Origin: Rickettsiales bacterium
GTDB lineage: Bacteria > Pseudomonadota > Alphaproteobacteria > Rickettsiales > UBA3002
Reading direction: 5' to 3'
NCBI GenBank assembly: GCA_947441895.1
Contig: CANEUT010000002.1
Location: 1-33,900, forward strand
Length of the DNA stretch: 33,900 nt
Shown: positions 1 through 20,782 of the stretch, in pieces
Layout: each line of letters begins with the position of its first letter
Numbering within the stretch: the stretch's first letter is position 1
Notes under the pieces: model-generated
What the model saw: only the letters and a program-made list of their open reading frames with translations
What the model was told of the DNA's origin: nothing
The model's database searches: none
Program-made: the position numbers and the translations under genes

Positions 1-603
1 AGAATCTATAAGAACGGGGAATCCGCCGAGTGGACATATCTGCGCTGTTGGAAGCCTGACGATGCTGAGAAAATCATGTGGGTCAGAGAAGACAGCGTGC
101 TGGAACAGGTTGCCGATATTTTCAATCACCTCGGGATCAAAAATCCTGAGATGCTTCAGAATGTCGTGGATTACATCAAGGAAACCAACCGCGCTAAAAA
201 GGCGTTTCATAATCAGGAAGTCGGGCAGCTGAAAAAGCAGCATACCGAGATTCAGGACAAACTCGACAGGTTGGTGGATTTACGGCTGGAGGGGGAGATC
301 ACCAAGGAGGAGTTTGAAACCAAGAAGAACCGACTGAAGGATCGGCAGTACGAACTCGACCAATTGATCCTGACGTACGACAAAGCAGACGACCAGTTCA
401 CAAAGACGCTCTGTGCCTTGCTTACCATCGCTTCGGACAGTGATAAAATCTGGTTAGGTTCGACGATTTCGGAAAAACGCGAGTTGCTGAATTTCGTATT
501 TGCGAACCTACAGCTAAAAGGTGCAACCCTTTGTTATGAATTAAGAAAACCATTTGATAAGATGCTCAATCAAGCTGATTGTATCAAATGGCGGAAGCTG
601 TGA
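1..603 (+). CDS. recombinase, C-terminal portion (5' end outside the window); resembles the coiled-coil/C-terminal region of large serine recombinases
   Basis: Frame 1 is open from base 1 (RIYKNGESAEWTYLRCWKPDDAEKI precedes the listed Met at 76) to TGA at 601-603. A charged heptad-like stretch (QLKKQHTEIQDKLDRLVDLRLEGEITKEEFETKKNRLKDRQYELDQL) is followed by an EKRELLNFVFANLQLKG tail. The catalytic domain is not in the window, so the family call rests on resemblance only. The last 15 nt overlap the 3' end of tRNA-Ser. Confidence 0.55.
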   Translation, partial: RIYKNGESAEWTYLRCWKPDDAEKIMWVREDSVLEQVADIFNHLGIKNPEMLQNVVDYIKETNRAKKAFHNQEVGQLKKQHTEIQDKLDRLVDLRLEGEITKEEFETKKNRLKDRQYELDQLILTYDKADDQFTKTLCALLTIASDSDKIWLGSTISEKRELLNFVFANLQLKGATLCYELRKPFDKMLNQADCIKWRKL

Positions 604-678
604 GATTCGAACTCACGGAGGAGTTGCCCCCTCGGCAGTTTTCAAGACTGCTGCCTTAAACCACTCGGCCAAGCTTCC
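589..678 (-). tRNA. tRNA-Ser (anticodon UGA), class II, CCA encoded
   Basis: The reverse complement reads GGAAGCTTGGCCGAGTGGTTTAAGGCAGCAGTCTTGAAAACTGCCGAGGGGGCAACTCCTCCGTGAGTTCGAATCTCACAGCTTCCGCCA. It has acceptor stem GGAAGCT/AGCTTCC and anticodon stem GCAGT/ACTGC around loop CTTGAAA (anticodon TGA). It also has a long variable arm, T arm GTGAG-TTCGAAT-CTCAC and a 3' GCCA. Confidence 0.9.
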
Positions 679-720
679 GTATAAAATTTGCCTTTCGGCG
701 ACCTTAAAACCTTCCAACCT

Positions 721-767
721 TCACCCGTTTTCAAGACCGGTTCCTTAAACCACTCGGCCACCTGTCC
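721..767 (-). pseudogene. 5' half of a second tRNA-Ser(UGA) (acceptor 5' strand through anticodon arm), lacking T arm and 3' acceptor strand
   Basis: The reverse complement reads GGACAGGTGGCCGAGTGGTTTAAGGAACCGGTCTTGAAAACGGGTGA. The D arm is identical to the intact tRNA-Ser and the same CTTGAAA anticodon loop is present. The acceptor strand is different (GGACAGG), and no GTTCGAATC T arm or complementary 3' strand follows. Confidence 0.6.
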
Positions 768-830
768 GTTTAAACCGTGGGGAGTGGCCTCACGGTTTAA
801 TGAGTTGTCTTCATGCGCCAGACGGCTGGC

Positions 831-863
831 ACTCGGCCACCTGTCCATTCCATGCGAAACGTG
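831..863 (-). repeat. 33-bp direct repeat, copy 1: tRNA-Ser 5' fragment (GGACAGGTGGCCGAGT) plus 17 nt of its upstream flank
   Basis: ACTCGGCCACCTGTCCATTCCATGCGAAACGTG is identical to 993-1025. It shares the GGACAGGTGGCCGAGTGG start with the fragment at 721-767. Confidence 0.8.
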
Positions 864-874
864 CATAGGATATT

Positions 875-901
875 TGCCGCCTCGCGGCAACGGCAGTTTT
901 T
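875..901 (+). terminator. possible intrinsic terminator (weak)
   Basis: Stem TGCCG (875-879) pairs with CGGCA (891-895), with an inner TTGCCGC/GCGGCAA pairing option. It is followed by G then TTTTT (897-901). No obvious + strand gene ends immediately upstream. Confidence 0.3.
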
Positions 902-965
902 CTTGCTGTTGACTGCTGCGTGGATTCGGGTCTGCTGACCCTCACCCTGCGGGCGCTTCGCGTCC

Positions 966-985
966 AAAATGCCTGCTGGCATTTT
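966..985. terminator. symmetric A/T-flanked hairpin, possible bidirectional terminator
   Basis: AAAATGCC-TGCT-GGCATTTT is a perfect 8-bp inverted repeat. Only 3 G:C pairs, so it is a weak hairpin. Confidence 0.3.
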
Positions 986-992
986 GCAAACC

Positions 993-1025
993 ACTCGGCC
1001 ACCTGTCCATTCCATGCGAAACGTG
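993..1025 (-). repeat. 33-bp direct repeat, copy 2: tRNA-Ser 5' fragment plus upstream flank
   Basis: Identical to 831-863. Here the tRNA-like part extends to GGACAGGTGGCCGAGTGGTTTG and then diverges into a hairpin (966-985). Confidence 0.8.
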
Positions 1026-1041
1026 AGGAAAAAACCTCACG
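1022..1041 (-). terminator. probable intrinsic terminator of the PEBP gene
   Basis: On the minus strand, CGTGAGG-TTTTTT-CCTCACG (7-bp perfect stem) is followed by TTTCG. It lies 13 nt after the stop codon at 1054-1056. Confidence 0.5.
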
Positions 1042-1053
1042 ATCATTTCTTCC

Positions 1054-1710
1054 TTACTGCCCCGCGTGCGGATTATAAAGCGTATATGTGCCCACCACTT
1101 CACCTTTTGCCAACGTATGTTTCATGGCGGCGGCGCGCACCTGCTTGGCGGTGGCATTCTCGGGCAGCCTCAGGCTTCGCACATCCAGCGCCCGCACCTC
1201 AAAATGGTAATGGTGCAGCCGTTCGTCGTTCCATGGCGGGCAGGGGCCGCCATATTCATGCACATCGGCATAACCGGCAAGATCGCTGGCGGCGGGCATG
1301 GCAATGGTAATTTCGCGGTCACCACCGGGCAGGCCCTTAATTTTGCGGGGAATATCGGCCAGACCCCAGTGATAGAAAACCTGCCGCTTTGCATCGGGGG
1401 CAATGGTGACGCCCTCTTTTCCGGCATGGCTGAAATCAGCCGGCACATCGGGGTCGAACATGGTGACCACAAACGATTTGGTATCTTTTGGTGCACCCGA
1501 CCAGTTAATAGCGGGGCGAAAATTCTCACCTTTTTCGCTTTTGCCATCCTCCGTCGCCTTGCACAGCGCAAACGTGGCGGGAATGGGTTTGCCGTGGGTG
1601 ATGCCCTCCACGGTGACCTTCAATTTGGCAGGTTTAAGCGGTGCGGCGGCGTGGGCTGTGCCTGCAAAAGCAAGGGCACACGCAATGGCAGTGCGGAACA
1701 TAAAACGCAT
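1054..1710 (-). CDS. YbhB/YbcL-family PEBP (Raf-kinase-inhibitor-like) protein, secreted/periplasmic
   Basis: 218 aa with an N-terminal signal peptide (MRFMFRTAIACALAFAGTAHA). PEBP signatures are DPDVP, YHWGLADIP and GPCPP...HHYHFEVRALD. GAGGAAG lies 5 nt upstream of the ATG. Confidence 0.85.
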   Translation of the reverse strand: MRFMFRTAIACALAFAGTAHAAAPLKPAKLKVTVEGITHGKPIPATFALCKATEDGKSEKGENFRPAINWSGAPKDTKSFVVTMFDPDVPADFSHAGKEGVTIAPDAKRQVFYHWGLADIPRKIKGLPGGDREITIAMPAASDLAGYADVHEYGGPCPPWNDERLHHYHFEVRALDVRSLRLPENATAKQVRAAAMKHTLAKGEVVGTYTLYNPHAGQ

Positions 1711-1948
1711 GATAACTTCCTCATATTCGGGTAGGTTGCTTCACTAGCGGTTTTATAAAACAAATTCAATCGCTGGATTGGGGCTTGCCAAGCGCCATTG
1801 GTTCCAGTAGATAGCTCCCTCTTTTGAAACAGGGGCGCTTTAAGTGCCTTGTTTTGGTGACGCGGGGTGGCGTAAGTCCCTCGAAGCGTTGCGAAGGGGG
1901 AAGCAGCCCTAATAATCTGTTTCCGGCATAGCCGGTATTTATTGGTGA

Positions 1949-2025
<77 letters not shown>

Positions 2026-2184
2026 ACCCATTGATTTCAAGATATCCCAAGAAGTTCCAAAACCCAAATATTTTCATAGGGTTATCCGATATTCGTTGTC
2101 CCACTGATTTCCAGGGTTAACCGGTTTGTACCCTGCTTTTTAGGGTACGGGATAGGGTGCAGCATTGTGGTTCGGAGAATTGGG

Positions 2185-3714
2185 CTACCCTCTACCCTCG
2201 CTGGCGCTATCAATGGGGAATCTTGCTACAGTGCCTCGCGCTTCCATTTCCCGCTTTTTCATTTCGCCTGCCAGCACACCGGGAATGGTTGGTGTATCGT
2301 TGATGCTTATCAGCGATTTGCTCAAGGGTTTGAAGCCTTTCCCGACAAGCTGCTCTGCCGCACGGTAGAGGGCGCCAGCACGCTCGCGAGTATAGTAGCG
2401 CTCATCGACCGAGGCGGGATCCTGTTTGCCTAACAGGTCTGCTTTATACTCTAGCTCACGCACACGCATCCCTTCCAATTCCTGCACGGGGATAAGATGA
2501 GGATCGCTGGTGGGTGAAGCAGGATTACGGTCAATGATTGCGGGGGCAAGTCCTACATGGTCTTCCGCACTCGGGGTGAATTGTCGTGCAATAGAGCGGT
2601 AAGTGAAGCGAGCAGCAGCTTTAGCCAGCTCCTTCTCGGCGCTGGTTTTTGCTATTTCAAACAAGTCTGGCAATCGTTTCTCGACGCGCTGAATACTGGA
2701 TATCACTTCGTGATCGCTAGAAAGGTCGAGCCGTGCAAATTGAGTGTATTTACCATCTGGGTGCAGACGACGCGAGAGTGCATCGGTCGAACTATCCGCT
2801 GCATTGCGTTGTAAATAGCGCTGTCCCTCGACGGATTCGAGGGTTTTTACGAAAGGATGTAAGAAGGTGCCTTCCATCTCAGTACGGTGATACACGTCCA
2901 TCAGGTTTTTGGTCTCGGGCGCAAGTGTTAACGGAAAATCAGGCAGCTGCGAAATTTCGTCCATGCTTTTCTCAATCGCTACCATGCGCGTTTTAATGCG
3001 TGCAACAAGGGGGGCATCACCGTTTTTCGTATCCACAGGTGTATCCAGTGCGGCATCGCGTATCTGGGCGATATATTGATGAAAAAGCTCAGGCTTTCCC
3101 TGCTCAATTGCATATACCGCGAGTTGGCAGCAGAAGGGGAAGATGCGATCCTCGACCGCATTTTTCTTTTGCCTAATAATAGCTGCATCAGCTGGCGCCA
3201 TATTGAACATATCGGACGCAGTGGTCAGCTCGAAGATGGTTTCACCCATATCGTGAATCCAGGCACCGAGCAGCGCATCGCGGCGCAGCTTATTGGTAGC
3301 GTCTGACATGGTGTTTTTAAATATCGCGCCACTATTTTCGAACACTGTTTGGACAATATTCATCACCTGCTTGCTGTGGCCTGCGGTGCTGTCGGCACGC
3401 ATGGGAGGCATATTATTCATGCCTACAAAACGCGGTACTTCGGCCAGCGCATGGTCGATGAGGCTCAGCATCATCAGGCTGCGGTCATGGCCATCGGTTG
3501 GCAGGCCAATATCCAGCCCCGCATTCATGCTGGCGTTAAAGCAATACCAGCCCCGCCAGGGCATGGTTTTTGCGGCATAACCAGTGCGCTTAAAAATAAA
3601 GTCCCGACGATTGGATGTTCCTTGCGGAAAACGGTTCGGGTTCTGTGCATCATTGATACAAAAATCCTCAAGCTCTTGGGGCTTAAATGCTGCGCTTGCA
3701 GATATTTTTTTCAT
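2185..3714 (-). CDS. HD-domain phosphohydrolase (YfbR-like/HD_3-type core) with long N- and C-terminal extensions
   Basis: 509 aa. The metal-binding pattern is ...STAGHSKQVMNIV...(about 40 aa)...LLGAWIHDMGETIFELTTASDMF...KKNAVEDRIF, i.e. H...HD...D/E as in YfbR-type 5'-deoxynucleotidases. The HD codons lie at 3250-3255. The rest of the protein has no motif I recognise. Confidence 0.7.
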   Translation of the reverse strand: MKKISASAAFKPQELEDFCINDAQNPNRFPQGTSNRRDFIFKRTGYAAKTMPWRGWYCFNASMNAGLDIGLPTDGHDRSLMMLSLIDHALAEVPRFVGMNNMPPMRADSTAGHSKQVMNIVQTVFENSGAIFKNTMSDATNKLRRDALLGAWIHDMGETIFELTTASDMFNMAPADAAIIRQKKNAVEDRIFPFCCQLAVYAIEQGKPELFHQYIAQIRDAALDTPVDTKNGDAPLVARIKTRMVAIEKSMDEISQLPDFPLTLAPETKNLMDVYHRTEMEGTFLHPFVKTLESVEGQRYLQRNAADSSTDALSRRLHPDGKYTQFARLDLSSDHEVISSIQRVEKRLPDLFEIAKTSAEKELAKAAARFTYRSIARQFTPSAEDHVGLAPAIIDRNPASPTSDPHLIPVQELEGMRVRELEYKADLLGKQDPASVDERYYTRERAGALYRAAEQLVGKGFKPLSKSLISINDTPTIPGVLAGEMKKREMEARGTVARFPIDSASEGRG

Positions 3715-3957
3715 ACTGGCTCATCTAAAGATTTTTTGGGTATCGTAGTGATGAAGTTCCCCGTACAACTGCCGCATGTTAGCAATTCGAAGAGTTCCTG
3801 TGTGTGAAGGTTTTGCGACATTTTGGGTTGGGGTGGTGAAAGCAAGCGCCCCCTTATCTCTCATGGCGGGCATACGATGAATGCGTCAGTTTGATGACAA
3901 CTGGTTTGCATTATTTACATGTGGTCTAGGCGTTTTGGCACACAGGGTTTCTTAAAA

Positions 3958-3973
3958 TTGTAACATTTTACAA
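3958..3973. promoter_or_regulatory. palindrome TTGTAA-N4-TTACAA in the divergent control region, candidate operator
   Basis: A perfect 6-bp inverted repeat lies 43 nt upstream of the giant ORF start, inside the 301-bp intergenic region shared with the HD gene. Confidence 0.3.
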
Positions 3974-4015
3974 GCGTTGTTTGTGCTAAGCTCATGGCAT
4001 AGGTAGGGAATCTGC

Positions 4016-7000
4016 ATGGCTTTGTTTCACGATGTCACTGCTGACTATGTTGAGCGTCCGCGCAAAGCGGCGGATGGGGCCTCTGCGCTACAAATGAGCC
4101 GCGAAGAGTTAAAGCAGCTTCACGAGAGCGGCTTGGGCGTTGCGGATACGGAAACTACCGGTCTCAAATCAGGCGAAAATGGGCTGACGGAACCAGCAGT
4201 CATTCGTGCCATGACGATTGGCGAAATCAAAGCCTACAATCGAGAGGCTAAGCGGCAAGGGTTGCCGGCGGATCAGCGTATTCCCGTGCCGCGCGGTTAT
4301 GCGGATAGCGAGCTACGCCTCATCGCGCTGCAGCATTTTGTGCTGCCAAACCGGCCGATGATCCATGACCGAGAAGACGGTCATGAACTGCCGCGCGGAT
4401 CCTATAACAGCGACCGACAGAAAGCATTTGAGTATGATATTAGTGCCTATGCGCTGGGTGTCACCGGCGCGGAGGTAGTGCGCGAGAAAGGCTATGGACC
4501 GCTGACAGACCTAAAAATTCACGGCAAGAAGGTGGAAACATTGCCGAGCTTTGTACCGCTAATGCAGAGCTTTTTACTGTTTACAGGCAAGTCAGACGTT
4601 GGTCCCAAGCAAGGCGTCGCCTATTTCAATTCTCCCTTTGATATCCCATTCCTGCGCGAATTATTTGTCGACGCGATGGCCTATGATGCAGCAAAGAAAA
4701 ACGAGCATCGCCATCATGAGCGCGCAGTTAATCGGCGTTTGCCGCAGGAGCTTGATATTGATTATCATGCTGAAACCACTACGCCGGAACAGCGCGCAAA
4801 AATCATCACGCACATTAAAAAACGCCTGCTGGATAGCGGAATTGCGCAGGAGAAAATGGCGGAATATTTTGCCCCCGCCCGCTGGCACTGTGTGCTACAA
4901 TCCTACCGCGCAGCTCATCCTGAACTGGCTGGCCATACGCTGGATGGGCTGATGAAAACAGCCGGGCTTGCGGAAGGCGATCGCGGTGCCCACTCGGCGA
5001 TTGAGGATGTGGTACTCACCGCGCGGGGTATGCTGCATCTGCTGGGGGAAGCGAAGCTGGGGCAGAATAATTTACCGGCCATGGGTGAATTACCTGGCAT
5101 GATTTTGCGCCGCAGCCATGGTGCGGGAGCAAGCAGCCACGCCGCTGAGAATGGCCGCGATGTGGTCATCACCCTGCCACATGGTAAAACCCCGCATGCC
5201 AAAGCAGTGGAGCATTGGTTACGCAGCTTTAATCGAGCCAACCCAGCCGACGAGCGGGACCCGGCGCTGAACCCGCACGGCAAGCCATGGTTCAGTCAAT
5301 TCATCGAGAATGAACAGGGTTTAAAAATCGTTGCTTCCGGTGCGGAAAAACGTCCCCTGTTTTTGTCGTTCACCAAACATCTCGGTGTCGCCTCGCATCT
5401 GCTGGATGGACGATACCCATGGCTAACCGCGCTGGAGGCGAACGACAAGCCTGGCACCTACGTGGATGTGACGGTGAATGGCGAGCACCTGCATGACGTG
5501 CCATGGAACATTTTGCGCCGTAATGTGGCTTATCTCGATAAACAACCCGCCAGCGAACGCGTTGAAATGCTGAAATTTCTTCGTGATATTGGAAAAGCCA
5601 CTGACGCACTCGGTGGCGTACTGCTGCGTGAGGAAAATGGCGTTCGTTACCTGCGCCTTTATGGCCATGTGCGCCAGCATGGCACGGTGGATATTCCGTG
5701 GCCTAAAAACGTACATCTCGCGGATGCGCAGAAAATCGTGTTCGACAATCTTGAACAGGCCGTGCGTCTTGGCATTACGCCGCATGCAGTCCGCAGTGAA
5801 TTAATGTCATCAGGCGAGGTCGAGGACGATGGCGTGCAAGACGATGATCATAAGCGCATCGTGGCAGAAAAAAAATATTCTTCCACCACGCTGGATATTA
5901 TTTCACCGCCAGATGGTAGGGCGCACATTCACCGCGAAATAACACCCGCTTTATTTCAGCTTTTTAAGGCGGGTCTGCCGTCGGACGCGCGTCATGGCAG
6001 CTTCAATCGCACGATCGATACGGTGAAATACGGCAAGCACTACACGATTGCGGTGAATAAAGTAACGCACGGATCGGACAGTTTTATTACACTTGATGGG
6101 CCACCGGAGGCCTTCGATGCATTCGTGGCGCGCCAAAAGCCTGATAGAACCTACGAGCCAATAGCAGAAAAACCGACCAATATTCTGACCGATGCAGGAT
6201 GGCTGCTCGACCGATTGCAGAAAACCCCCGGTGTGCCGAAGGATGGGGTTGAGGTAACAGCGAATAACCGCATCATCGTTCACCAGCCGCAAGGCATTAG
6301 TAGTGATGCACTGGCGCTGATGCATCATATTGGCATTCCTCACCGTGCGGCGGAGAAAGAAATCCGCTTTTCCGCCGGTGCACTGATGCAGGATGCCTTC
6401 ACCTGGTCGCTCGATATTTCACGAGCGCTAAAAAATAAAGCCTATGAAAAGGAGATGGGGGCGAATTCCATCGTCCCCAGCATCGTCAAAGGACTAAAAG
6501 ACATGAGCGAGAAGGGCGAAAGCCATAAACGCCTCGACCATGCGAAGTTCGACCCCATGCTGGGGCTACAATTGCATTACAAACCACGCAGTAGTGAGGC
6601 AGCTGAGATTATCCGTATTCCAGTAGATAAGATGCTGGCGCGGACGCTTCCCATTGGTCGTCGCCGCGTGCAACGTGTGTTTGCGCGGCTCATGCATTCT
6701 CCTAAAAAGATCGAATCCGCAAATGAGGAAATGCGTTGGGAGGTTACTTTAACACCGCTGGAACAGACGATGCTTGGCCATGCACTGGCGGAAGTTGGCA
6801 CAAGCGTAACGTGGCGGCATAACGCAAAGGGCGACCCCTGTTTCGTGATTACCGAGAGCGAACTTTCTTCGCGTGGCAACCCAATTTACCTTGCCATGCA
6901 AACGATGTCCGACCAGCTTGCGACACTGACAGAATCAACGGATGTCCCGGAATGGTATTTCAGTGCCCACCCCGAGTTGAATGGTGATCGCATTGCTTTG

Positions 7001-10000
7001 CAGCTACCCGCGCGGCCTCTGTTTGAAGCCTCTGCCGCCCCGGTTTATCAGGGTATTAGAAGTTATTTGCGCCGCATGGAACATGGTGGAGCGGGTGGCG
7101 ACAGCCTTAATAAGGGCCTGTCGCGCATCATGGGTGAGCGCAGCGGCAAAGGTGGATCGGTGCTGAAGCAGTTGGATTACGCGCTGCGTCGCGACTCGGA
7201 TGCCCAGCTTTCGATCCTGCTGAATGTCGTGGAGCAGGAAGCGCCCAAGCTACAGGCGTTACATAAACACACGCTCGATCTGGCGCGCAACATCGCACCT
7301 TCAGACAAACCCAGCCTTAAGCGAGAACTGGCGCTGAATCAGGAGATGCTGAAAGACCGCATCTGGGTGGCACACATCATTGCCGCGTGCGATGCAATGG
7401 CAGAAAAAGAGCCGGCACAGGCTGCGAATTGGATGGAAATTCGCCACAAGGCAACTGGCGTTGCTGATAAAATGGCGATTGCCATCCATGGCGCAGACCG
7501 ACTACGCGAGGCGCTGAATACCGGCGCACACACCATCGCTAATGACGGCTCACATTGGCGCAGTAGCCTTGTGGGCGCGAGTGTGAATGCACGGCTAGAT
7601 ATACTGGAGAAAGTGTATATTGAGGCAGCGCAAACGCATACACCGAATCTGGTGGAGAAATACGTCGAGAAGCAGCGCGCAACGCTGGAGCAGTTTGGCA
7701 TGCAGCAAGAGGATAAGCTGGCGGGGCTGTTGCACCCCTACCATGCGCATGCGGCGCTGCGCCTTGCCGTGCTGCATACGGTGGAACGTGATCCGCAGCG
7801 TAAACATCTGCTCGCACGCGCAGCAACCGTTGCGCTAAAAGACGCCTATGGCTTTGCACCCGATAAATCCGCTGAGTTTTTAAGGCTCTACGAAACGATC
7901 GCCGATCCGGCATCCAATCCCGCGCAATGCAAGCAAGCGGGCGAGGTGTTTGTTGCTGGTATTCCAAGTTTCAACGAAGATGCCTATTGGCTGCCGATGC
8001 AATTGTTCGGCAAGGCGAAAGAAGGCGATCTGACTAAATCCCAGCGCGCAGAGCTACCTGCTATCATCGCCAAAGAGGTAAAAAAAGCGTATCATGAGGT
8101 AGGGCTAGCGCATCTCTACCTCGCGGCGGAAATGGCGGCGGAGCTGGAGATCGTGCGCAAAGAATTAGCGCACAAAAAACCTCGGCAGGCAAAGAATGCA
8201 GGCGTGCGCGAGAAGACATTGGAAATCGGATTGCAGCACCAGAAATCCGAAATGCTGCGCTGTTATGCAGCAAGCGGCTTTAGCACGAAGAACGCGGAAG
8301 CTGAGTTACGTGGAAAAACCCGCGCTGCCATCGAAAAACGTCCGGATTTCCTTTTACAGATGAAGAAGCATAAGGAATTTTTAAAACTTCGTGAGAATCA
8401 ACCGAAGCTGGTGGAATATAATGCCAAGCAGCAGGAAGCTATTTTGCGCGCCGCCATTACACAGGAAGGTGGGCAGAAGCGGCTGGAAGAATTTTATCAG
8501 CATAAACTGGTAGAGGAAACATCCCTTGCCAAGCAGGTGCGGGCCGTTGCTGTCAACCACCCGGATTTTGAAGCATCGCGCGCACAGGTAAATAAAGCGG
8601 CTATTCTTACAGCTAAAAATCACATGGTGGCCGAGCTGGATGATCTGGGCAAAATCGAATATCACACACGGCGCGATTTAGAGGCACTTGGGCTACTGTT
8701 GCAAGATATGGCAGTGAAGCTGCATCCCCAACTCGAAGCCACGCCAATTAAGCCGCAGCGGATGGATTTGCCCGAATTTCAGGGCTTGGCCAAGAACCCA
8801 ATTCCTGAACTCCGCGCGGCGGCGGAAAAACTCGATCGCCTGTCGTTGCACCAAGCGAAGGCAAAAATCAGCCCGAGTGAGCAGGTAACAAAGGAGGAAT
8901 ATAAGCAGCGTAGGATTTATCATTCGCTTGGCGCACTGGTAAATAAACCAGTCGACCATGTGTTGGGTGGCGCCGCTGGACCCTTGTCCCAACAAATCGA
9001 TAGCATAAAAAATACCATACCGGATTATTTCGTGCTCGATACCAGCGCGATTATTGGCTATTTCGACGTGCTACGCCATGATACCGCTCGCCCTCGTGAC
9101 ACACACGGCACGAAGCCGGATTTTGTTGGTTATCACGGCAATTTGCTGCGCCGATTGCAGGCGCTCGCTATGCCACAAGCCCATGGCACCATGCCATTGC
9201 GCATCCCCGATTATGTATTTTATGAACTCAGCGGCCTCATGCCACCAATGCTGCAAAGTGCAACAAAACATTTTGCCGCGATTGAGAAAAGTTATGCCCC
9301 GAAGCTGGAAAAAGCCCGGGGCACACGGCATGAAACATTGTTGCGCGATAAAGCCCGTGAATATCAGACGAAAATCGATGATCTCGTCGATTGGTCCATT
9401 CGCCTCGATCGGCGTCGACCACTGGATCTTAAAAGCAGCATTGGCGACCGGGTGGAGGAGTTGAATCAGCTTTTTACCATCTTCGCTTACCACCCCGAGG
9501 TGATGCTGCCCACAAAAGTTGGTACCGATTTCCAACAAAGCGCACGGGTGGAAAGTGCCGTCGTCGCGGGCATTGGGATGATCAATCGTCCGGTGACGCC
9601 CACTTATTATCGTGATGAAATAGCCAAACTAAGGATCGCTATCGCTGCGGATAAAGCTCAGCTGAAAGCAAAGCCATCCCTTGCCAATTACACGCTTTCC
9701 TTCAACGATCTGCTACAAACACCTGGGCTTGATTTTGATATCAAGCATCTGCGCATCCATTGGGGGCAGATGTATTTCATGGGGCTGATTGACGAGCATC
9801 AATATCGTAATTTCATGCGCAACATAAGCGGTGCAAAAGAAGCCAATGAACAGGGGCACGACAATAACTCGCGCTTTGTCACTTATGGCAGTCTTGTGAA
9901 CCGTACGAAGGAAACGGGGCTGACAGGATCAGGGCTGGTGAACGCAGTGAGAAATGCCCGATCTGCGCAAGTACAGGATGGCTCAAAGGAAGAAATGGTA

Positions 10001-11518
10001 AATCGTCGCAATTTAACATTTAATGAGTTGGAACGTTTTGTGCCAAAGCCTGAGCTTGATCTCGCACATGCTATAGGGCCAGCCAAGCTAACGATGGATC
10101 AGTGCATTTTTGGTGGGTTGCTACCCGGTGCCGCAATCAAACGTCACCGCGAAGGCGACGAACATATCGTGCGCGAAAACGATGCCGAGGTCGAAACATT
10201 GCGTCTCATGGCGCGCACGCTAGGCTATACGCCGCCGGAGATCATCACGAGTGGGAAAGACCGTTATGAAACCTTAAGAAATTCCCTCAAGCATCAGGGA
10301 TTTTTCGAGCGGCAGGTAACGCTGGAGGATTGTATCCGACTGCAGACAGCCTGTACTCAGGCTGATATTCCTTGCGCGAAGCTTGACCAAATCCTCGAGC
10401 ATTTACCTACGCTTTTATGCGAAAAACCAAAAAATTTGGTACAAAAAAAATTGAACGATGGCAGCGTGGACATTTCTGCGCCGTTGGAGCGTATTTTTAC
10501 TAACGCGCTTGTGCATGGGGCCCTAAGCCCGGCTCAATTCGTGGCGTTATTAGTGAAGCTTGACCCTACATCGCTCAATGTCGATCACGTGCCCATGTGC
10601 AGCATTAAGGCAGGAGGTCTCACCTTACAATTCAAACTGCGCAAACCCATAGCGCGCACCAGCACGATGCCAGCCGATCAGCTGGCAGCGGCGATTGATC
10701 CGACGACCCTTTGGTTAGAGATTCCAGACGTTTCAGCGCCACATTTTGACAGGCGGCAGAATTTCAGCGATCTGGTTAATGTTGGTCGCCACGCCCGACG
10801 TAGTGGTGCCAATTTCAGTGAAGGGCAGGCATTACTTGACCGCCTGCTGGCAGATAAATTCCGCTCCGGTGAAGCTGCACCGCAGCAGCGGCTGGTAACG
10901 GCACATGCCGCGTTCACTGAACTGTTTGGCCCTACTGAAGGTGATGCGCTATTTTTCCAGCAAATGAAGGATTTTGAATCGCGGCAGGAGCGAGGGTTCC
11001 AATCCGGCGACCATGTATCTTCCACTAAAAAACCTTCGGATTGCGCTATTGCCGCTAACCACCGCAACCGACTGATTGATCGGCGCAACAAAGGCGAAGT
11101 TTCTGTGGTAGAGGGCACGCGCAACGCGCAACGCAATGAACCGGAGGCGAAATTATGGGTCATCGGCAATGATAGCGACCTGGTGTCGGCCGAACAATAT
11201 CGCTTGCTCGCCCCGGAAACAAAAATAGCTAAAAATGGGCGTGAAAAAACGCAGGATCCCATAACGCTTGGTAAAAAGTGCGAAAGCCCAGGCATTCGTC
11301 TGCGGCCACCCGTGGCGGCGCAGCATTCGCGGTTGGTGGAGGCGCAGGGCCCAGCTTCGCAGGACGATGTGAACATCCATAACGTGCCCACCCGCGATTG
11401 GCTGGAATATGTTGGGCGTTTGAATGACATATCACCCACCGCTAAGCGGAACCCCGATGATTTTACCCATAAATACGCGAAGGCCAGTGTACCTTTCCGT
11501 ACAAAGTTTTTAGGTTAG
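4016..11518 (+). CDS. giant multidomain protein (2500 aa): N-terminal DEDDh 3'-5' exonuclease-like module, long mostly helical/charged middle, PIN-like motifs towards the C-terminus; function unknown
   Basis: A single uninterrupted 7.5-kb ORF with AGGTAGGGA 7 nt upstream of the ATG. The DEDDh motifs are ExoI GVADTETTGL (D44, E46; nt 4145-4153), ExoII YFNSPFDIPFL (D209; nt 4640-4642) and ExoIII GAHSAIEDVVL (H326, D331; nt 4991-5008). PIN-like strings are FVLDTSAII (D1675), IPDYVFYELSG (E1737) and KGEVSVVEG...WVIGNDSDL (D2386, D2388). No Walker A motif was found by eye. Confidence 0.85.
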   Translation: MALFHDVTADYVERPRKAADGASALQMSREELKQLHESGLGVADTETTGLKSGENGLTEPAVIRAMTIGEIKAYNREAKRQGLPADQRIPVPRGYADSELRLIALQHFVLPNRPMIHDREDGHELPRGSYNSDRQKAFEYDISAYALGVTGAEVVREKGYGPLTDLKIHGKKVETLPSFVPLMQSFLLFTGKSDVGPKQGVAYFNSPFDIPFLRELFVDAMAYDAAKKNEHRHHERAVNRRLPQELDIDYHAETTTPEQRAKIITHIKKRLLDSGIAQEKMAEYFAPARWHCVLQSYRAAHPELAGHTLDGLMKTAGLAEGDRGAHSAIEDVVLTARGMLHLLGEAKLGQNNLPAMGELPGMILRRSHGAGASSHAAENGRDVVITLPHGKTPHAKAVEHWLRSFNRANPADERDPALNPHGKPWFSQFIENEQGLKIVASGAEKRPLFLSFTKHLGVASHLLDGRYPWLTALEANDKPGTYVDVTVNGEHLHDVPWNILRRNVAYLDKQPASERVEMLKFLRDIGKATDALGGVLLREENGVRYLRLYGHVRQHGTVDIPWPKNVHLADAQKIVFDNLEQAVRLGITPHAVRSELMSSGEVEDDGVQDDDHKRIVAEKKYSSTTLDIISPPDGRAHIHREITPALFQLFKAGLPSDARHGSFNRTIDTVKYGKHYTIAVNKVTHGSDSFITLDGPPEAFDAFVARQKPDRTYEPIAEKPTNILTDAGWLLDRLQKTPGVPKDGVEVTANNRIIVHQPQGISSDALALMHHIGIPHRAAEKEIRFSAGALMQDAFTWSLDISRALKNKAYEKEMGANSIVPSIVKGLKDMSEKGESHKRLDHAKFDPMLGLQLHYKPRSSEAAEIIRIPVDKMLARTLPIGRRRVQRVFARLMHSPKKIESANEEMRWEVTLTPLEQTMLGHALAEVGTSVTWRHNAKGDPCFVITESELSSRGNPIYLAMQTMSDQLATLTESTDVPEWYFSAHPELNGDRIALQLPARPLFEASAAPVYQGIRSYLRRMEHGGAGGDSLNKGLSRIMGERSGKGGSVLKQLDYALRRDSDAQLSILLNVVEQEAPKLQALHKHTLDLARNIAPSDKPSLKRELALNQEMLKDRIWVAHIIAACDAMAEKEPAQAANWMEIRHKATGVADKMAIAIHGADRLREALNTGAHTIANDGSHWRSSLVGASVNARLDILEKVYIEAAQTHTPNLVEKYVEKQRATLEQFGMQQEDKLAGLLHPYHAHAALRLAVLHTVERDPQRKHLLARAATVALKDAYGFAPDKSAEFLRLYETIADPASNPAQCKQAGEVFVAGIPSFNEDAYWLPMQLFGKAKEGDLTKSQRAELPAIIAKEVKKAYHEVGLAHLYLAAEMAAELEIVRKELAHKKPRQAKNAGVREKTLEIGLQHQKSEMLRCYAASGFSTKNAEAELRGKTRAAIEKRPDFLLQMKKHKEFLKLRENQPKLVEYNAKQQEAILRAAITQEGGQKRLEEFYQHKLVEETSLAKQVRAVAVNHPDFEASRAQVNKAAILTAKNHMVAELDDLGKIEYHTRRDLEALGLLLQDMAVKLHPQLEATPIKPQRMDLPEFQGLAKNPIPELRAAAEKLDRLSLHQAKAKISPSEQVTKEEYKQRRIYHSLGALVNKPVDHVLGGAAGPLSQQIDSIKNTIPDYFVLDTSAIIGYFDVLRHDTARPRDTHGTKPDFVGYHGNLLRRLQALAMPQAHGTMPLRIPDYVFYELSGLMPPMLQSATKHFAAIEKSYAPKLEKARGTRHETLLRDKAREYQTKIDDLVDWSIRLDRRRPLDLKSSIGDRVEELNQLFTIFAYHPEVMLPTKVGTDFQQSARVESAVVAGIGMINRPVTPTYYRDEIAKLRIAIAADKAQLKAKPSLANYTLSFNDLLQTPGLDFDIKHLRIHWGQMYFMGLIDEHQYRNFMRNISGAKEANEQGHDNNSRFVTYGSLVNRTKETGLTGSGLVNAVRNARSAQVQDGSKEEMVNRRNLTFNELERFVPKPELDLAHAIGPAKLTMDQCIFGGLLPGAAIKRHREGDEHIVRENDAEVETLRLMARTLGYTPPEIITSGKDRYETLRNSLKHQGFFERQVTLEDCIRLQTACTQADIPCAKLDQILEHLPTLLCEKPKNLVQKKLNDGSVDISAPLERIFTNALVHGALSPAQFVALLVKLDPTSLNVDHVPMCSIKAGGLTLQFKLRKPIARTSTMPADQLAAAIDPTTLWLEIPDVSAPHFDRRQNFSDLVNVGRHARRSGANFSEGQALLDRLLADKFRSGEAAPQQRLVTAHAAFTELFGPTEGDALFFQQMKDFESRQERGFQSGDHVSSTKKPSDCAIAANHRNRLIDRRNKGEVSVVEGTRNAQRNEPEAKLWVIGNDSDLVSAEQYRLLAPETKIAKNGREKTQDPITLGKKCESPGIRLRPPVAAQHSRLVEAQGPASQDDVNIHNVPTRDWLEYVGRLNDISPTAKRNPDDFTHKYAKASVPFRTKFLG

Positions 11519-11524
11519 GCGCCC

Positions 11525-13750
11525 ATGGCAGAACACATGATAAAGTTTTCCTATGCTGAGCCGAAGCGACCAAGGCCAAGCAAAATAGCAGATATACGTG
11601 CGCGCCTTAAAGAGAACGATGCGCCACTTGAGCAGCGCCTCGCCACCATGCTGGCCGACCAGCTAAAGTTGTCTGCTGATAGTTTATTGCGGCGCGACCT
11701 GATCGAACCCATGCAATATGACGATATCGTGCCGCAGGTGCAGACTGCAATGGCAGCGAATATCAAGGATTTCAGTGCAGCAGCGGAGCAGATTTGCGAG
11801 GCAATCCGCAAAGGAAAAACCATTGGTATCTCAGCAGATTATGACGCGGATGGCAATACTTCACTTGCGCTGTTCATCCGCATGTTGCGCGAATGCGGTA
11901 TGCCGCCTGAGAAAATTATTAAGCATATCCCCAACCGCGATCAGGATGGGTACGGCATCAACGAATCGGCGGTGGATGATTTTGCCGCGCACCATGTCGA
12001 CCTGATGATTACACTCGATAATGGTACACGGGCGGAGAAGCCGATCAAAAAAGCGCTGGACGCCGGGATGGAAGTGATTGTCATCGATCACCATGGCGAT
12101 GCGGGTGGAAAAACGCTGCCACCACAAGCGAAGGTGGTAAATCCAAATATCCTTGCCAATGTTACCGCCACCAAGCAATCCTCGACTCTGGAAGAAACCA
12201 AAAATCTTGCTGCTGTGGGGGTAAGCTACATGATGGCGACGGAGGTGATGGCCCGCATGAACGTGGATCGCGCGAGTGATGCGCAGCTCGACCCAAAGTC
12301 ACTGCTAGGCCTTGTGGCACTCGGCACGGTGTCGGACGTAGTGCCGATGGGTATGCTCAATCGCGCACTGGCGCGCGAGGGGATGGGGCGTATGCGTCGA
12401 GGCGAGGATAAAAACATCCTGCGTTTTATGCGCGGTGTAGGAATAGATGACCCCACCAAAATGAGTGAAAGTGATATAGCTTTCCGTCTTGGACCTATCA
12501 TCAACGCCCCGGGGCGACTGGGTGATTCGGTGGCGTGGGCGTTTCTCTCGGCCATGCAGGGCGAGGCAGAAAAGCCTGCGCTAGAGGCAGCGATTAATCA
12601 TACAGTCGATGAGTTGCACGAGGCAGCCGTTGCACTAAAATCCGAGGAGCAGAAGACAAAAGAAGCGAATATCCAAAAATGGCGTAAAGCGAACCCGGAT
12701 AAAATTCGAAGCGAGGAAAAGAATCTCTCGCCACTCTATGACACCATCCCTGAGAATCCCTACCTCGATCGGCTGATTCAATCTTCCATTGCCTGTAACG
12801 AGGAACGCAAGAATATCGAATTCCTGATGCAGCCAGAAATTCGCGCCGAAGCAAAAAAACAAAGCAACATGCCCATCCGCGTCATTGCGGGGGAAGGCTG
12901 GCACGAAGGTGTCATCGGTATCGCCGCCAGTCGAGTGAAGGAGGAGTTCGGCCTTCCTGCGGTCATTGGCAGCATTAAGCAGCTGGAAAACGGCACCTGG
13001 CAGGCTAAATTCTCTGCCCGCAGCATTCGGGTGGCGGGCTACCCCGTCGATATTGGCGCGGCCTTCGGCGCACTGGGGCCGCAACATCAGGATGACACAA
13101 CCTCCCTGTTTGCCAAAGCGGGTGGCCACCCGATGGCTGGAGGTGCCACCATTTTTGCCACAACACGGGAGGAGCTAGACGACAAAATCCGACGCTTCAG
13201 CGCCGCATTAAACGAGCGTCTCGGGCCCGATGCAGAGCGTGCCATCGCCCATCGCAGCGAGCAGATTTTTGGCACGATTGATCTTTCTTCTGTCTCCCTC
13301 AACACCGAAAAAGCTGTGGGCAGTGTTGCGGATAGGTTAAATACGCTGTTGAATGCGATTCCCCACGCCGGGCCATTTGGCGAGGCGATGCCTGCGCCCG
13401 TCGTAGCGATCCGCGGTGTGGGGATTTATCCGCCAGAAACGGGGCGCAGCGAATCGCGCCGGGGGCACCTAAATTTCGATATCAAGGGCGATCATAACCC
13501 TCTACGCATTCACTGCCGCGCCAGCCATGCAGGCGGCACGGTGTTGGCGGATCAACTACATGCACTGCAAAATGGGTTAAAGAAGGGAATCGTTGTTGGC
13601 CAACTGACGCGCAAGGCAGATGGCACGTTTCAGATGGAGGTGGAGCACGTGCTGCCCGATAACGGCCTGGCTGCCGACCCGGCTTTTACTAAATCCGGCA
13701 TTTTCGGACTGGTTGGTCTGAGCCGAGAGCAAAGCGCCCGCTCGGCCTAA
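11525..13750 (+). CDS. recJ: RecJ-like single-stranded-DNA exonuclease (DHH + DHHA1), extended 741-aa form
   Basis: DHH-family motifs appear in canonical order: ISADYDADGNTS, HIPNRDQDGYGIN, DLMITLDNGT, VIVIDHHG (DHH at 12086-12094), LVALGTVSDVVPM, LGPIINAPGRLGD. The DHHA1 motif is GGHPMAGGATI. The gene starts 6 nt after the giant ORF stop. Confidence 0.85.
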   Translation: MAEHMIKFSYAEPKRPRPSKIADIRARLKENDAPLEQRLATMLADQLKLSADSLLRRDLIEPMQYDDIVPQVQTAMAANIKDFSAAAEQICEAIRKGKTIGISADYDADGNTSLALFIRMLRECGMPPEKIIKHIPNRDQDGYGINESAVDDFAAHHVDLMITLDNGTRAEKPIKKALDAGMEVIVIDHHGDAGGKTLPPQAKVVNPNILANVTATKQSSTLEETKNLAAVGVSYMMATEVMARMNVDRASDAQLDPKSLLGLVALGTVSDVVPMGMLNRALAREGMGRMRRGEDKNILRFMRGVGIDDPTKMSESDIAFRLGPIINAPGRLGDSVAWAFLSAMQGEAEKPALEAAINHTVDELHEAAVALKSEEQKTKEANIQKWRKANPDKIRSEEKNLSPLYDTIPENPYLDRLIQSSIACNEERKNIEFLMQPEIRAEAKKQSNMPIRVIAGEGWHEGVIGIAASRVKEEFGLPAVIGSIKQLENGTWQAKFSARSIRVAGYPVDIGAAFGALGPQHQDDTTSLFAKAGGHPMAGGATIFATTREELDDKIRRFSAALNERLGPDAERAIAHRSEQIFGTIDLSSVSLNTEKAVGSVADRLNTLLNAIPHAGPFGEAMPAPVVAIRGVGIYPPETGRSESRRGHLNFDIKGDHNPLRIHCRASHAGGTVLADQLHALQNGLKKGIVVGQLTRKADGTFQMEVEHVLPDNGLAADPAFTKSGIFGLVGLSREQSARSA

Positions 13751-13820
13751 TAAGGCTCGCCGTCCGGCTTTTTACGAGGAGCTGCACGATCAGCGCGGGC
13801 GGCGCAGTTAAAGTTTGAGC

Positions 13821-13844
13821 CAAATCTGGCCCCCGCAACCAACC
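13821..13844 (+). repeat. attR-like core of island 1 / attL of the mini-island: second copy of the 24-bp repeat
   Basis: Identical to 2005-2028. Confidence 0.9.
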
Positions 13845-14031
13845 ATACTATTCGCGGCCATTCGCCCGCGTTCGAAAAACCCAAAAAATATTTATATTTA
13901 CAGAAGCTTACGCCTCAAACTCGTTCGTCTGTGGTCGTAATGGTGCGGCTGCAGCCAACCATTTTGAGGGTATATTTGTGGGTACAAACCACAGGTACCC
14001 AGATGAGGTATCTCATGACGGAGTCAGTCTG

Positions 14032-14088
14032 ATGCCACGCATGAATCGCAAGCTGACAGATATTGAGATAGCTATCATTTACACCTAG
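14032..14088 (+). pseudogene. possible remnant of a tyrosine-integrase N-terminus (17 codons)
   Basis: It translates to MPRMNRKLTDIEIAIIYT*. The KLTD-EI string resembles the start of the arm-binding domain of P4-type integrases (..LTDxEIK..). It sits where an int gene is expected, about 190 nt inside the att core and in the same orientation as the tRNA. It is very short, so this is only suggestive. Confidence 0.3.
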
Positions 14089-14154
14089 ATGGATTAGCTT
14101 TTTCTCTTGCGCTCTCTGTGCAAAAAATTGATAAAATATACAGGGGGGTGTGAT

Positions 14155-15204
14155 ATGCTAGAAGCCGAGTTGCCACAGAATGAGAATGAACGCCTTGATC
14201 TTTTGTATGGCTTAAATATTCTTGATACCCCAGTCGAGGAACGATTTGATCGTATTACTCGCCTCGTATGTAATATTTTAGATGTTCCTATTGCTGCCAT
14301 TTCATTGGTTGACGAACATCGGCAATGGTTCAAGTCCATACAGGGTTTAAAAGCTACTGAAACTGAGCGCCGCGTTGCATTTTGCGCTCATGCTATCCTC
14401 GATGAAGGATTAATGCTTGTTTCTGATGCTACAAAAGATGTGCGATTTTTAGATAATCCGCTGGTAACGGGTGACCCCAATATTCGTTTTTATGCAGGTC
14501 AGCCACTTTCTTTAGTGCCGAATATGCGTTTGGGAACCCTATGCGCTATTGATTCAAAAACGCGTGAGTTGACAAAACGTGAAGCGGACATCATGCGCGA
14601 TTTAGGACGCATGGTTGAGTCTGAGCTGCAGCTGTTATTTTTAGCCAGTTCTCAAAGAAAGCGCATCGTTTCATTTGAAAACGTAGAGCTTGATATGATG
14701 GTTGATCCCGTGACCCGTCTATGGAGCCGGAAGGGAACTTTAGAAATGCTTGAGCGTGAGTGGGATTGGGCTTGCGATGGAGGAGAGGACATCGCCTTTG
14801 CATGTGTAGGTTTATACCAGCTCACCAATGATATGAAACCAGAAGAGAGCTATCGGTTTGATGAAGCGATTACCGTGGCTTCACAAACCATTTCACGTGC
14901 ATTGGGTGTAAATGACTTAATTGGTCGTTGGAGTGATAACCAATTCATCCTCGTATTTCATGGCTATGGCGCGACTGGACTGAATCATATGATGCAGTCG
15001 ATTCAAAAAGAGCTCGAATGCCCATTTTTCCTGGAAGATGGCACTTCTGTATCATTAAAAATACGTGCTGGTGCTTTTGGTATGACTGCAAATAAAGAAG
15101 ATCGGGTTGAACGGTTAACATTGATGATGAATCAGGAGTATGAAAAAACAAGTCTTGAAATGTTACCAATTAGCGTAAATCACGCCAGTATAGTTTGGCG
15201 CTGA
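14155..15204 (+). CDS. GAF-domain protein with degenerate (probably inactive) GGDEF domain
   Basis: The N-terminal ENERLDLLYGLNILDTPVEERFDRITRL...HRQWFKS...FCAHAI is typical of a GAF sensor. The C-terminal domain has the GGDEF fold context (DPVTRLWSRKG...) but the signature reads RWSDNQF instead of GGDEF/GGEEF. ATG 14155 is preferred (CAGGGGGG 6 nt upstream) over the TTG at 14107. Confidence 0.75.
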   Translation: MLEAELPQNENERLDLLYGLNILDTPVEERFDRITRLVCNILDVPIAAISLVDEHRQWFKSIQGLKATETERRVAFCAHAILDEGLMLVSDATKDVRFLDNPLVTGDPNIRFYAGQPLSLVPNMRLGTLCAIDSKTRELTKREADIMRDLGRMVESELQLLFLASSQRKRIVSFENVELDMMVDPVTRLWSRKGTLEMLEREWDWACDGGEDIAFACVGLYQLTNDMKPEESYRFDEAITVASQTISRALGVNDLIGRWSDNQFILVFHGYGATGLNHMMQSIQKELECPFFLEDGTSVSLKIRAGAFGMTANKEDRVERLTLMMNQEYEKTSLEMLPISVNHASIVWR

Positions 15205-15236
15205 AATGCCTGTTCCGTTTTAATGGATCGGCATTT
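15204..15236 (+). terminator. possible intrinsic terminator after the GAF-GGDEF gene
   Basis: AAATGCC (15204-15210) pairs with GGCATTT (15230-15236), with an inner TCC/GGA pairing. The T-rich 3' stem runs into TTTGT. It overlaps the last base of the stop codon. Confidence 0.4.
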
Positions 15237-15327
15237 GTAAACAGGTTGTCTGGCCCAGCCTTAATTGGGGCGCCCAGTTTTCAGTTAGCAGTGTAAAATG
15301 GGCTAGCTTGGCGGTAACGTTTCAGCT

Positions 15328-15349
15328 AAATCGCGCACCCGCAACCAAC
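15328..15349 (+). repeat. third, degenerate copy of the tRNA-fMet 3'-end repeat
   Basis: AAATCGCGCACCCGCAACCAAC versus AAATCTGGCCCCCGCAACCAAC is 19 of 22 identical. Confidence 0.6.
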
Positions 15350-15372: not shown

Positions 15373-15888
15373 TTAATGCGACTGAATGGAGCGGGTGACG
15401 ACTCCCCAAATGGTAACGCCGGTTTCCGAATCAATAGGAATTTCGTTGAAAGCCGGATTAGCGGGCATAAGAAAAGCTTTGTTCTTTTTAACGATGAGGT
15501 ATTTCACGGTGATGGAACCATCCACCGCGGCGACGACGATTTTGCCGTGGGTGGGCTTCATTCGGCGGTTTACCACCAGCAGCGTGCCATCGGGGATGCC
15601 AGCATCGATCATGGAATCACCAGTGGCATAGGCGAGGAAGGTTTCTTCCGGATCATCCACCAGATAGCTATGCAGGTCGATATGTTCGTCTACCTGATCA
15701 TCGGCGGGCATGGGCATGCCGGCTTGCACACGGCTGGAATAAAGCGGTAACTTAATGCCGCGATTGGCAGCAAATTGTTTAATTTCATTCACCATGCTGG
15801 CGGGGACGCGAATGCGCTCAGTCACCTCACCATAGGTGCCTTTGCCTTTGGGTCTGCCAGCACCTTTTCGTACGCCACCGCGTGCCAT
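15373..15888 (-). CDS. S24-family LexA/UmuD-like autopeptidase with short basic N-terminal region
   Basis: 171 aa. There is a candidate Ala-Gly cleavage site (RVQAG/MPMP), Ser nucleophile context ATGDSMIDAGI and Lys context SITVKYL. The N-terminus is MARGGVRKGAGRPKGKG followed by a short strand-helix-like segment. No umuC/dinB gene is adjacent. Confidence 0.8.
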   Translation of the reverse strand: MARGGVRKGAGRPKGKGTYGEVTERIRVPASMVNEIKQFAANRGIKLPLYSSRVQAGMPMPADDQVDEHIDLHSYLVDDPEETFLAYATGDSMIDAGIPDGTLLVVNRRMKPTHGKIVVAAVDGSITVKYLIVKKNKAFLMPANPAFNEIPIDSETGVTIWGVVTRSIQSH

Positions 15889-19537: not shown

Positions 19538-19540
19538 GCG

Positions 19541-20689: not shown

Positions 20690-20690
20690 A

Positions 20691-20760: not shown

Positions 20761-20782
20761 TAAAACTGCAAAGGAGAAAAAC

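Follow-up and report, generated by a model that had tools for sequence, protein, structure and literature searches.

A tRNA-fMet island in a Rickettsiales bacterium carries a predicted multi-nuclease accessory system with a structurally novel core

Cis-mobilizable elements (CIMEs), originally defined in Firmicutes, retain their attachment (att) sites and have lost the genes for integration and transfer (Guedon et al. 2017, PMC5704250). Stand-alone DEDDh exonucleases can protect bacteria from phage (bioRxiv 10.64898/2026.06.30.735675). Here we describe a 33,900-nucleotide (nt) stretch of DNA from a Rickettsiales bacterium (GenBank assembly GCA_947441895.1, contig CANEUT010000002.1), called the window, to which as a whole all window coordinates refer. 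It holds an island inserted at the gene of an initiator tRNA, tRNA-fMet, and the cargo of this island centres on a giant protein headed by a DEDDh domain. The island itself is of a recognised type, resembling tandem CIMEs at tRNA genes. Its cargo lies outside every named family and system tested; sequence and model comparisons predict it to be a new accessory system of several nucleases, carried on a genomic island and built around a core of novel structure.

Comparison between loci resolves the cargo into four modules, A (~500 amino acids, aa), B (~1600-1900 aa), C (~730-860 aa) and the RecJ-like D. The features of the island are as follows.

1949-2025, plus strand: tRNA-Met(CAT), initiator type, the integration target (ARAGORN; Rfam tRNA, 59 bits)
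2005-2028: attL core, the tRNA 3' end plus 3 nt (exact 24-nt repeat)
2185-3714, minus strand: module A, HD-like, 509 aa, divergently oriented from B (motif; sub-threshold HD matches in relatives)
4016-5050, plus strand: module B residues 1-345, DEDDh 3'-5' exonuclease domain interrupted by two large insertions (motifs, AlphaFold2 model, Foldseek)
5051-7465, plus strand: module B residues 346-1150, family-defining core (family conservation, AlphaFold2 model)
7466-8995, plus strand: module B residues ~1151-1660, mostly helical and poorly conserved (alignment, helices in the tail of the model)
8996-11518, plus strand: module C, residues 1661-2500, PIN-like, fused to B in the window (motifs)
11525-13750, plus strand: module D, RecJ-like DHH/DHHA1 exonuclease, 741 aa (Pfam DHH and DHHA1; TIGR00644; PDB RecJ)
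13821-13844: attI, where two islets meet, an exact repeat of the 24-nt core
14155-15204, plus strand: GAF-GGDEF protein, cargo of the second islet (Pfam GAF and GGDEF)
15328-15349: attR, degenerate copy of the core where the insertion ends on the right (aligned to the empty site of contig L088)

The ISG20-like stand-alone DEDDh defence exonucleases (bioRxiv 10.64898/2026.06.30.735675) set the precedent for a bacterial antiviral DEDDh effector. They differ in being small single-domain RNA exonucleases, and their relation to B is at the superfamily level only. The Cas3 HD-helicase and Hachiman HamAB resemble the set in that several degrading activities are combined, in the superfamily 2 (SF2) helicase found in loci L099 and L100, and in a patchy, fast-evolving distribution. 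Unlike these systems, the core set has no NTPase; the similarity amounts to a generic SF2 signal, and there is no CRISPR array and there are no Cas genes. As for the island itself, the likeness to a CIME lies in an islet flanked by copies of the tRNA 3' end (attL/attR), free of integration and transfer genes, with a tandem neighbour that shares attI. The differences are that no cognate integrative and conjugative element, integrative and mobilizable element or integrase was identified here, and that its host is an alphaproteobacterium, probably uncultured, and not a member of the Firmicutes.

The insertion was demonstrated by an empty site. The 24-mer CAAATCTGGCCCCCGCAACCAACC occurs in exactly two copies, at 2005-2028 and 13821-13844, identical in 24 of 24 nt (0 expected, 100 shuffles), just as an earlier note on this DNA had reported. 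A look-up with the identical PBP protein of the left flank led to L088, a contig of another metagenome. Its positions 1-4568 correspond to window 19921-15328 (95% identity) and its positions 4547-5634 to window 2027-899 (93% identity), the two matches overlapping by the 22 nt of the att core. L088 is an empty site in which an intact tRNA-Met runs straight into the sequence to the right of window position 15349. Because the empty site ends at this boundary, insertion is demonstrated for the unit 2026-15349, which is foreign DNA that entered by site-specific recombination at the 3' end of tRNA-fMet. The earlier note had proposed a tRNA-fMet island at 2005-13844 and had named as the check an empty site in close relatives, with the tRNA gene joined to the sequence right of 13844 or 15349. 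Strain-variable insertion is upheld; the unit demonstrated reaches 15349 and includes the GAF-GGDEF islet. The alternative that the locus is core, syntenic and repeat-free in relatives fails on L088, which lacks the island. Judged by its flanks (93-95% identical), the source of L088 is conspecific with that of the window, and the insertion is dispensable within the species because L088 has the empty site. A search of GTDB genomes with the same PBP protein found no close genome, the best match being 54% identical, in an alphaproteobacterial metagenome-assembled genome without synteny on the right flank.

The target gene carries a C1:A72 mismatch, a hallmark of initiator tRNAs. A29:U41 leaves it with two of the usual three consecutive G-C pairs in the anticodon stem. 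An Rfam scan of the window returned two tRNAs and nothing else.

Two islets in tandem make up the segment 2026-15349: the nuclease islet (2029-13844), whose GC content is similar to that of the flanks, and the GAF-GGDEF islet (13845-15349), whose GC content is low (0.44-0.48). Between the exact repeats lie three long open reading frames (ORFs), 2185-3714 on the minus strand and 4016-11518 and 11525-13750 on the plus strand, the last beginning 6 nt past the stop codon of the one before. The remaining gaps of 156, 301 and 70 nt leave no room for an integrase. Besides the frames of the long ORFs themselves, the islet contains three ORFs of at least 100 aa, all without a recombinase domain, and ORF and domain scans of the islet detected no transfer, replication or recombination gene. 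The proposal that three ORFs are its sole content, with no integrase, transfer or replication gene, was thereby confirmed. The tyrosine integrase by which a tRNA-integrated island is recognised was not found inside the island beside the att site, nor was a cognate integrase found in the 72-kb contig. Promoter and terminator scans of the locus gave nothing informative.

Both islets fit the CIME definition, with att sites kept and the recombinase gone. Immediately 5' of the core, attI and attR are alike (13809-13820 and 15315-15326; TAAAGTTTGAGC and TAACGTTTCAGC), and the tRNA is dissimilar there. GGGTAC-type repeats occur in the left ends of both islets, at 2141-2170 and 13965-14000, 115-150 nt from the core. 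The shared 5' sequence and these repeats are candidate arm sites of a common, now absent integrase, and we infer that two related elements accreted in tandem at tRNA-fMet. In the second islet, the GGDEF motif of the protein is degenerate (RWSDNQF), so that the protein is probably not an active cyclase. When this protein was looked up to find a site occupied solely by the second islet, the one match was the window's own contig.

Module B opens with the best-defined domain of the giant protein. The complete DEDDh motif set claimed for the giant ORF is there: D44, E46, D209, H326 and D331 are all present and are invariant in 33 B-family sequences. The domain matched the PADLOC DEDDh profile (1.7e-8) and phrog_192 (4e-11). 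Against Pfam RNase_T it scored 21.4 bits, below the gathering threshold of 24, with weak matches in five of six relatives. An AlphaFold2 model of residues 1-860 reached a predicted local distance difference test score (pLDDT) of 84.8 and a predicted template modelling score of 0.86. Foldseek aligned its DEDDh domain to RNase T, TREX1-like, ExoI and ExoX structures at a probability of ~1.0, with target template modelling scores of 0.55-0.65. An RNase H-like DnaQ fold for the N-terminus of B is thus confirmed at the level of the predicted structure. B shares fold and motif set with the DEDDh exonucleases (RNase T, TREX1/Plex9.1, ExoI, ExoX, DnaQ and the CRISPR-associated DEDDh PDLC01247). It departs from them in that insertions of ~160 and ~115 aa interrupt the domain, which heads a protein of 1600-2900 aa whose remainder is without known relatives.

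The core that follows is modelled as repeated alpha-beta-beta-beta-alpha units (pLDDT 76.8 overall and ~90 over residues 346-830) and is conserved throughout the family, including G556, W729 and R733. It had no significant Foldseek match in PDB or BFVD and no Pfam match. LAGLIDADG/WhiA-like and miscellaneous Foldseek matches of the core were rejected for their low probability. The helical region at residues ~1151-1660 gave no family matches, and sequence-profile searches of PDB returned nothing for B and nothing for C. In all, Pfam, PDB and BFVD leave more than 80% of the giant protein unmatched.

Module C is made of two halves, an N-terminal one with the motif LDTS...IPDxVxYE and one near the C-terminus with NxGE...NDSD, parted by an insertion of ~600 aa. 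Acidic residues 1675, 1732, 1737, 2361, 2386 and 2388 are invariant in nine sequences and stand in PIN-like contexts. The equivalent of C in protein P0038 matched Pfam PIN_12 at 4.4e-6 (27.6 bits, below the threshold of 32). An hhalign comparison of C with PIN gave a probability of 12% (P = 0.0024), and the C of the window's own clade matched no PIN profile even with the insertion spliced out. The PIN-like strings that had been claimed for the giant protein therefore hold at the level of motifs and not as a profile match to a PIN family. C shares with PIN_12 and other PIN nucleases the conserved acidic residues in PIN-like order; it differs in the ~600-aa split and in reaching no curated threshold. 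We regard C as PIN-like, with a putative PIN fold. In P0039, a single-chain fusion protein of a distant branch, the PIN-like domain has IIASAA (residues ~1845-1850) in place of the IDTSS of its relatives. It thereby lacks the first acidic residue, and this site may be inactive.

Module D is a RecJ-like DHH/DHHA1 protein, as had been proposed. Pfam DHH (1.5e-15, 58 bits) and DHHA1 (5e-10, 40 bits) both exceed their cutoffs, the motifs DYDADG, DHH and GGHPMAGG are intact, and solved RecJ chains in PDB were matched at 8e-37. Against the RecJ equivalog TIGR00644, D scored 272.8 bits (4e-81), below the cutoff of 396.9; five other D proteins scored 269-329 bits, so that six of six tested fall under it. 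RecJ_OB had no match in the window D; the D of L003 and P0036 carry a RecJ_OB annotation. D thus has the DHH and DHHA1 domains of RecJ (TIGR00644; PDB 8y30, 5f54, 2zxo) with all catalytic motifs. It differs from RecJ in its sub-equivalog scores, in a ~75-aa insertion between DHH and DHHA1, in being linked or fused to B in every case, and in being dispensable in this species.

Module A is more weakly placed. In its family of 24 clusters, H113...H154-D155-x-x-E158 is invariant in 22 sequences, which satisfies the H...HD...D/E metal-binding motif. Sub-threshold Pfam HD matches were obtained for 9 of the 22 members, at best 20.7 bits against a threshold of 22, and the window protein itself matched nothing in Pfam, NCBIfam or PADLOC. 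The HD domain reported in the earlier note therefore stands as a metal-binding motif and falls short of any curated profile threshold; A is, weakly, HD-like. A small A profile gave E 0.23 against YfbR, and a deep A profile found no relative in PDB, YfbR included. YfbR-type HD phosphohydrolases have the H...HDxxE motif in common with A, which stays below every curated threshold. Dephosphorylation of dNMPs of the YfbR type, also proposed, finds no support in these generic, weak HD signals. A Walker A motif is absent from all three islet proteins, in line with the description of the giant protein as lacking a P-loop. None of the three has a signal-like hydrophobic N-terminus or a transmembrane segment.

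An exhaustive hidden Markov model (HMM) search for B against 1.84 billion cluster representatives gave 40 matches at E < 1e-3 and 33 at E < 1e-30. A word-indexed homologue search missed most of the B family (5 relatives), and with the C profile it returned 3 proteins and missed members of that profile's own alignment. A metagenome scan with a 14-sequence subset alignment of B yielded three loci. No member of the B family carries a name in any source, and none was found in IMG/VR, PLSDB or INPHARED, which collect viral contigs, plasmids and phages.

The gene set recurs in at least 12 loci, with fusion, fission and inversion of its parts. In the window, P0002, P0003 and P0010, B runs on into C at its end; in L002, L003, L005, L098 and L102, C has a gene of its own, encoded on the opposite strand. 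Of the 12 loci with context, 9 have a RecJ-like gene or domain alongside B, and the contigs of the other 3 are truncated. In a distant branch (P0036-P0039 and P0042), a single chain combines RecJ, DEDDh, core and a compact PIN-like domain. The co-occurrence of giant-ORF homologues with RecJ-like genes, which the earlier note had suggested checking, is borne out by these loci and fusions. An A-like gene adjoins B in L002, L005, L001 and L097 and also lies beside the fusion protein P0036; on this distribution A is a frequent, not a universal, partner. The 'trio' of the earlier note is accordingly a recurrent unit, but one of four modules and not three, C being a separate gene elsewhere.

Identity between the window and L001, L002 and L003 is 56, 49 and 29% for B, 58, 46 and 22% for C, and 66, 50 and 35% for D, respectively, by which measure the three modules diverge in parallel across loci. 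Co-occurrence, single-chain fusions and parallel divergence together establish, at the level of comparative genomics, a functional linkage of B, C and D. In L099 (4115-6715) and L100 (9620-12175), both without C, B is adjoined by a ~860-aa SF2 DEAD-box helicase with weak similarity to Cas3 and HamB. L100 also has an unassigned 453-aa ORF between D and B. Loci L002 (18315-22285) and L102 (7588-11585), which occupy the same chromosomal place in two related genomes, share DUF533-TerC flanks that are 73-80% identical, and between these flanks B is 28%, C 22% and D 34% identical. Such a contrast could reflect a replacement hotspot or very fast evolution. The contig of P0002 also holds HTH, resolvase and DUF4238 genes.

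Outside the island, the left part of the window holds the only recombinase gene nearby.

76-603, plus strand: C-terminus of a large serine recombinase (501 aa in contig L006)

The 501-aa protein has Resolvase, Recombinase and SHOCT domains, and the stop codon of its gene and the 3' end of tRNA-Ser(TGA) (589-678, minus strand) overlap. In L006 the locus takes in positions 962-6588, with genes for an S24 peptidase, a DnaA_N protein and DUF6362 upstream of the recombinase. The locus looks like a second, unrelated integrative element at tRNA-Ser. As integrase of the islets the serine recombinase was rejected, lying outside the repeats and at tRNA-Ser; serine recombinases are also not known to generate 24-nt target duplications. 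On the other side, a UmuD-like S24 peptidase gene without an adjacent umuC (15373-15888, minus strand) borders the att site. In metagenome contigs L092 and L093 (93.6% identical), the sequence differs from position ~760, just past the UmuD-like stop codon, and contains another ORF without a Pfam match, which points to a third configuration of the site. Further to the right, 17475-20689 is a homogentisate-pathway cluster (phenylalanine 4-monooxygenase, 4-hydroxyphenylpyruvate dioxygenase and HgmA), ordinary chromosomal context that is also present in the empty-site contig.

What does the cargo do? The reading that we favour, and to which we give slightly less than an even chance, is that it is a multi-nuclease system without an NTPase that restricts invading nucleic acid (phage, plasmid or incoming single-stranded DNA, ssDNA). 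The products of A, B-C and D would act as one complex, since their genes co-occur and RecJ, DEDDh, core and PIN-like parts are joined in one chain in the distant branch. In this complex, the novel ~800-aa core would recognise or clamp the substrate and the PIN-like site would make the entry cut. The DEDDh site would then degrade strands from the 3' end and the RecJ-like site from the 5' end, without an NTPase, with the HD-like protein, or the SF2 helicase in some relatives, as an optional accessory. We put forward more tentatively, as plausible and still clearly under an even chance, the narrower claim of an NTPase-free immune machine in which RecJ-like, DEDDh and PIN-like activities, borne in one chain or in several subunits by a novel ~800-aa nucleic-acid-binding core, destroy incoming single-stranded or nicked foreign DNA; in it, the HD-like protein and the SF2 helicase would be interchangeable accessories. 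Since both classes of exonuclease have a preference for ssDNA, the specific target may be ssDNA or nicked DNA that enters by conjugation or transformation or arises as a phage replication intermediate.

Several observations are in keeping with a conflict system. One species has strains with and without the island, the system proteins of L002 and L102 are 22-34% identical between flanks that are 73-80% identical, architectures are shuffled and partners swapped (the SF2 helicase of L099 and L100), the B family is very rare (~33-40 clusters of 1.84e9), and the P0002 contig has HTH, resolvase and DUF4238 genes. The system is also predicted to be catalytically competent, because the DEDDh residues are invariant, the DHH motifs intact and the acidic residues of C invariant. 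Other results weigh against a defence function. In PADLOC-DB 2.0, only a generic CRISPR-associated DEDDh model matches B, and A, C and D match none; the set contains neither a sensor nor an NTPase of the kind typical of defence systems; and the PIN assignment of C and the HD assignment of A are both sub-threshold. The earlier note had asked whether homologues occupy variable or defence-island contexts; most other loci have housekeeping neighbours and are not in recognisable defence islands, among them ThiC, BioB and MetK at L101, an ABC transporter at L097, kdp and TerC at L002 and L102. In L003 the RecJ-like D is followed by a XerD-type tyrosine recombinase (20497-21441; 327.3 bits against a cutoff of 329.6), which fits a repair role, and D may be placed in that genome much like a housekeeping gene. 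All proteins were scanned with Pfam, NCBIfam, PHROGs and PADLOC, which recovered DEDDh (weakly) and DHH/DHHA1 alone, and the literature on combinations of DEDDh, RecJ, PIN and HD in defence yielded no description of this set. The view that no named system covers it is thus sustained, with no system or name in PADLOC, Pfam or NCBIfam matching.

The main rival, unlikely in our judgement, keeps the mobility and drops the immunity: the cargo might be an accessory module for DNA-end processing, or for repair and recombination, around a divergent RecJ. It might couple 5'-3' and 3'-5' ssDNA exonucleases with a PIN-like flap or nick nuclease for excision or resection, by analogy with RecJ acting with ExoI and ExoX in mismatch repair and with RecJ-helicase resection. 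All D proteins are clear RecJ homologues, many loci lie in housekeeping neighbourhoods, XerD adjoins D in L003, L099 and L100 have an SF2 helicase partner, phage, plasmid and viral collections gave no matches, and a UmuD-like SOS gene sits beside the site, all of which would suit such a module. Yet the L088 empty site shows that the species can do without the set, and every D protein falls under the RecJ equivalog cutoff (269-329 against 396.9 bits). The gap between the system proteins (22-34%) and their flanks (73-80%) is moreover atypical of repair genes, and the B family is extremely rare.

The remaining explanations carry less weight. A selfish cargo of a mobile genetic element, either an addiction or competition module or a polyvalent anti-defence or entry-promoting protein with helpers, would agree with the att-flanked islet, with the size and many domains of the main protein, and with the mobile-element-like context of the P0002 contig. 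We consider it improbable: genes for transfer, replication or recombination are missing from the islet, the other loci are chromosomal and without marks of mobile elements, and the absence of relatives from IMG/VR, INPHARED and PLSDB counts in particular against the polyvalent protein that the earlier note had listed as an alternative. Quite improbable is a role in handling RNA or small nucleotides, with a DEDDh enzyme of the RNase T/Orn type, a DHH/DHHA1 enzyme of the NrnA/GdpP type, a PIN RNase and an HD phosphohydrolase that would target RNA, nanoRNA or cyclic nucleotide signals, with a possible link to the neighbouring GGDEF gene. Each of the four domain classes does include RNases and phosphodiesterases, RNase T is among the Foldseek matches, and the GAF-GGDEF gene lies 400 nt downstream. 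D, however, matches RecJ (TIGR00644 4e-81, PDB RecJ 8e-37) and not nanoRNase models, the GGDEF gene is part of the other islet, whose GC content differs, and has a degenerate motif, and no GGDEF gene adjoins the system in the other loci examined. Chance juxtaposition without a common function, or a set of secreted scavenging nucleases, is disfavoured to the point of being hardly credible, given the recurrent co-occurrence, the single-chain fusions and the lack of signal-like N-termini and transmembrane segments.

The locus is of interest on several counts. It offers a well-documented natural case, beyond Firmicutes, of a tandem island at tRNA-fMet that has att sites on its flanks and no integrase, and for which a matching empty site is available; this makes it useful for studies of trans-mobilisation. 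The B family is invisible to current annotation, a piece of functional dark matter that comparative genomics can already sort into modules. If the restriction of invading nucleic acid that we tentatively favour is true, the cargo would be a mechanistically distinct nuclease system, with three to four hydrolytic activities of opposite polarity on a scaffold without structural relatives and with no ATPase, and it would bear on how cells distinguish and dispose of foreign or damaged nucleic acid.

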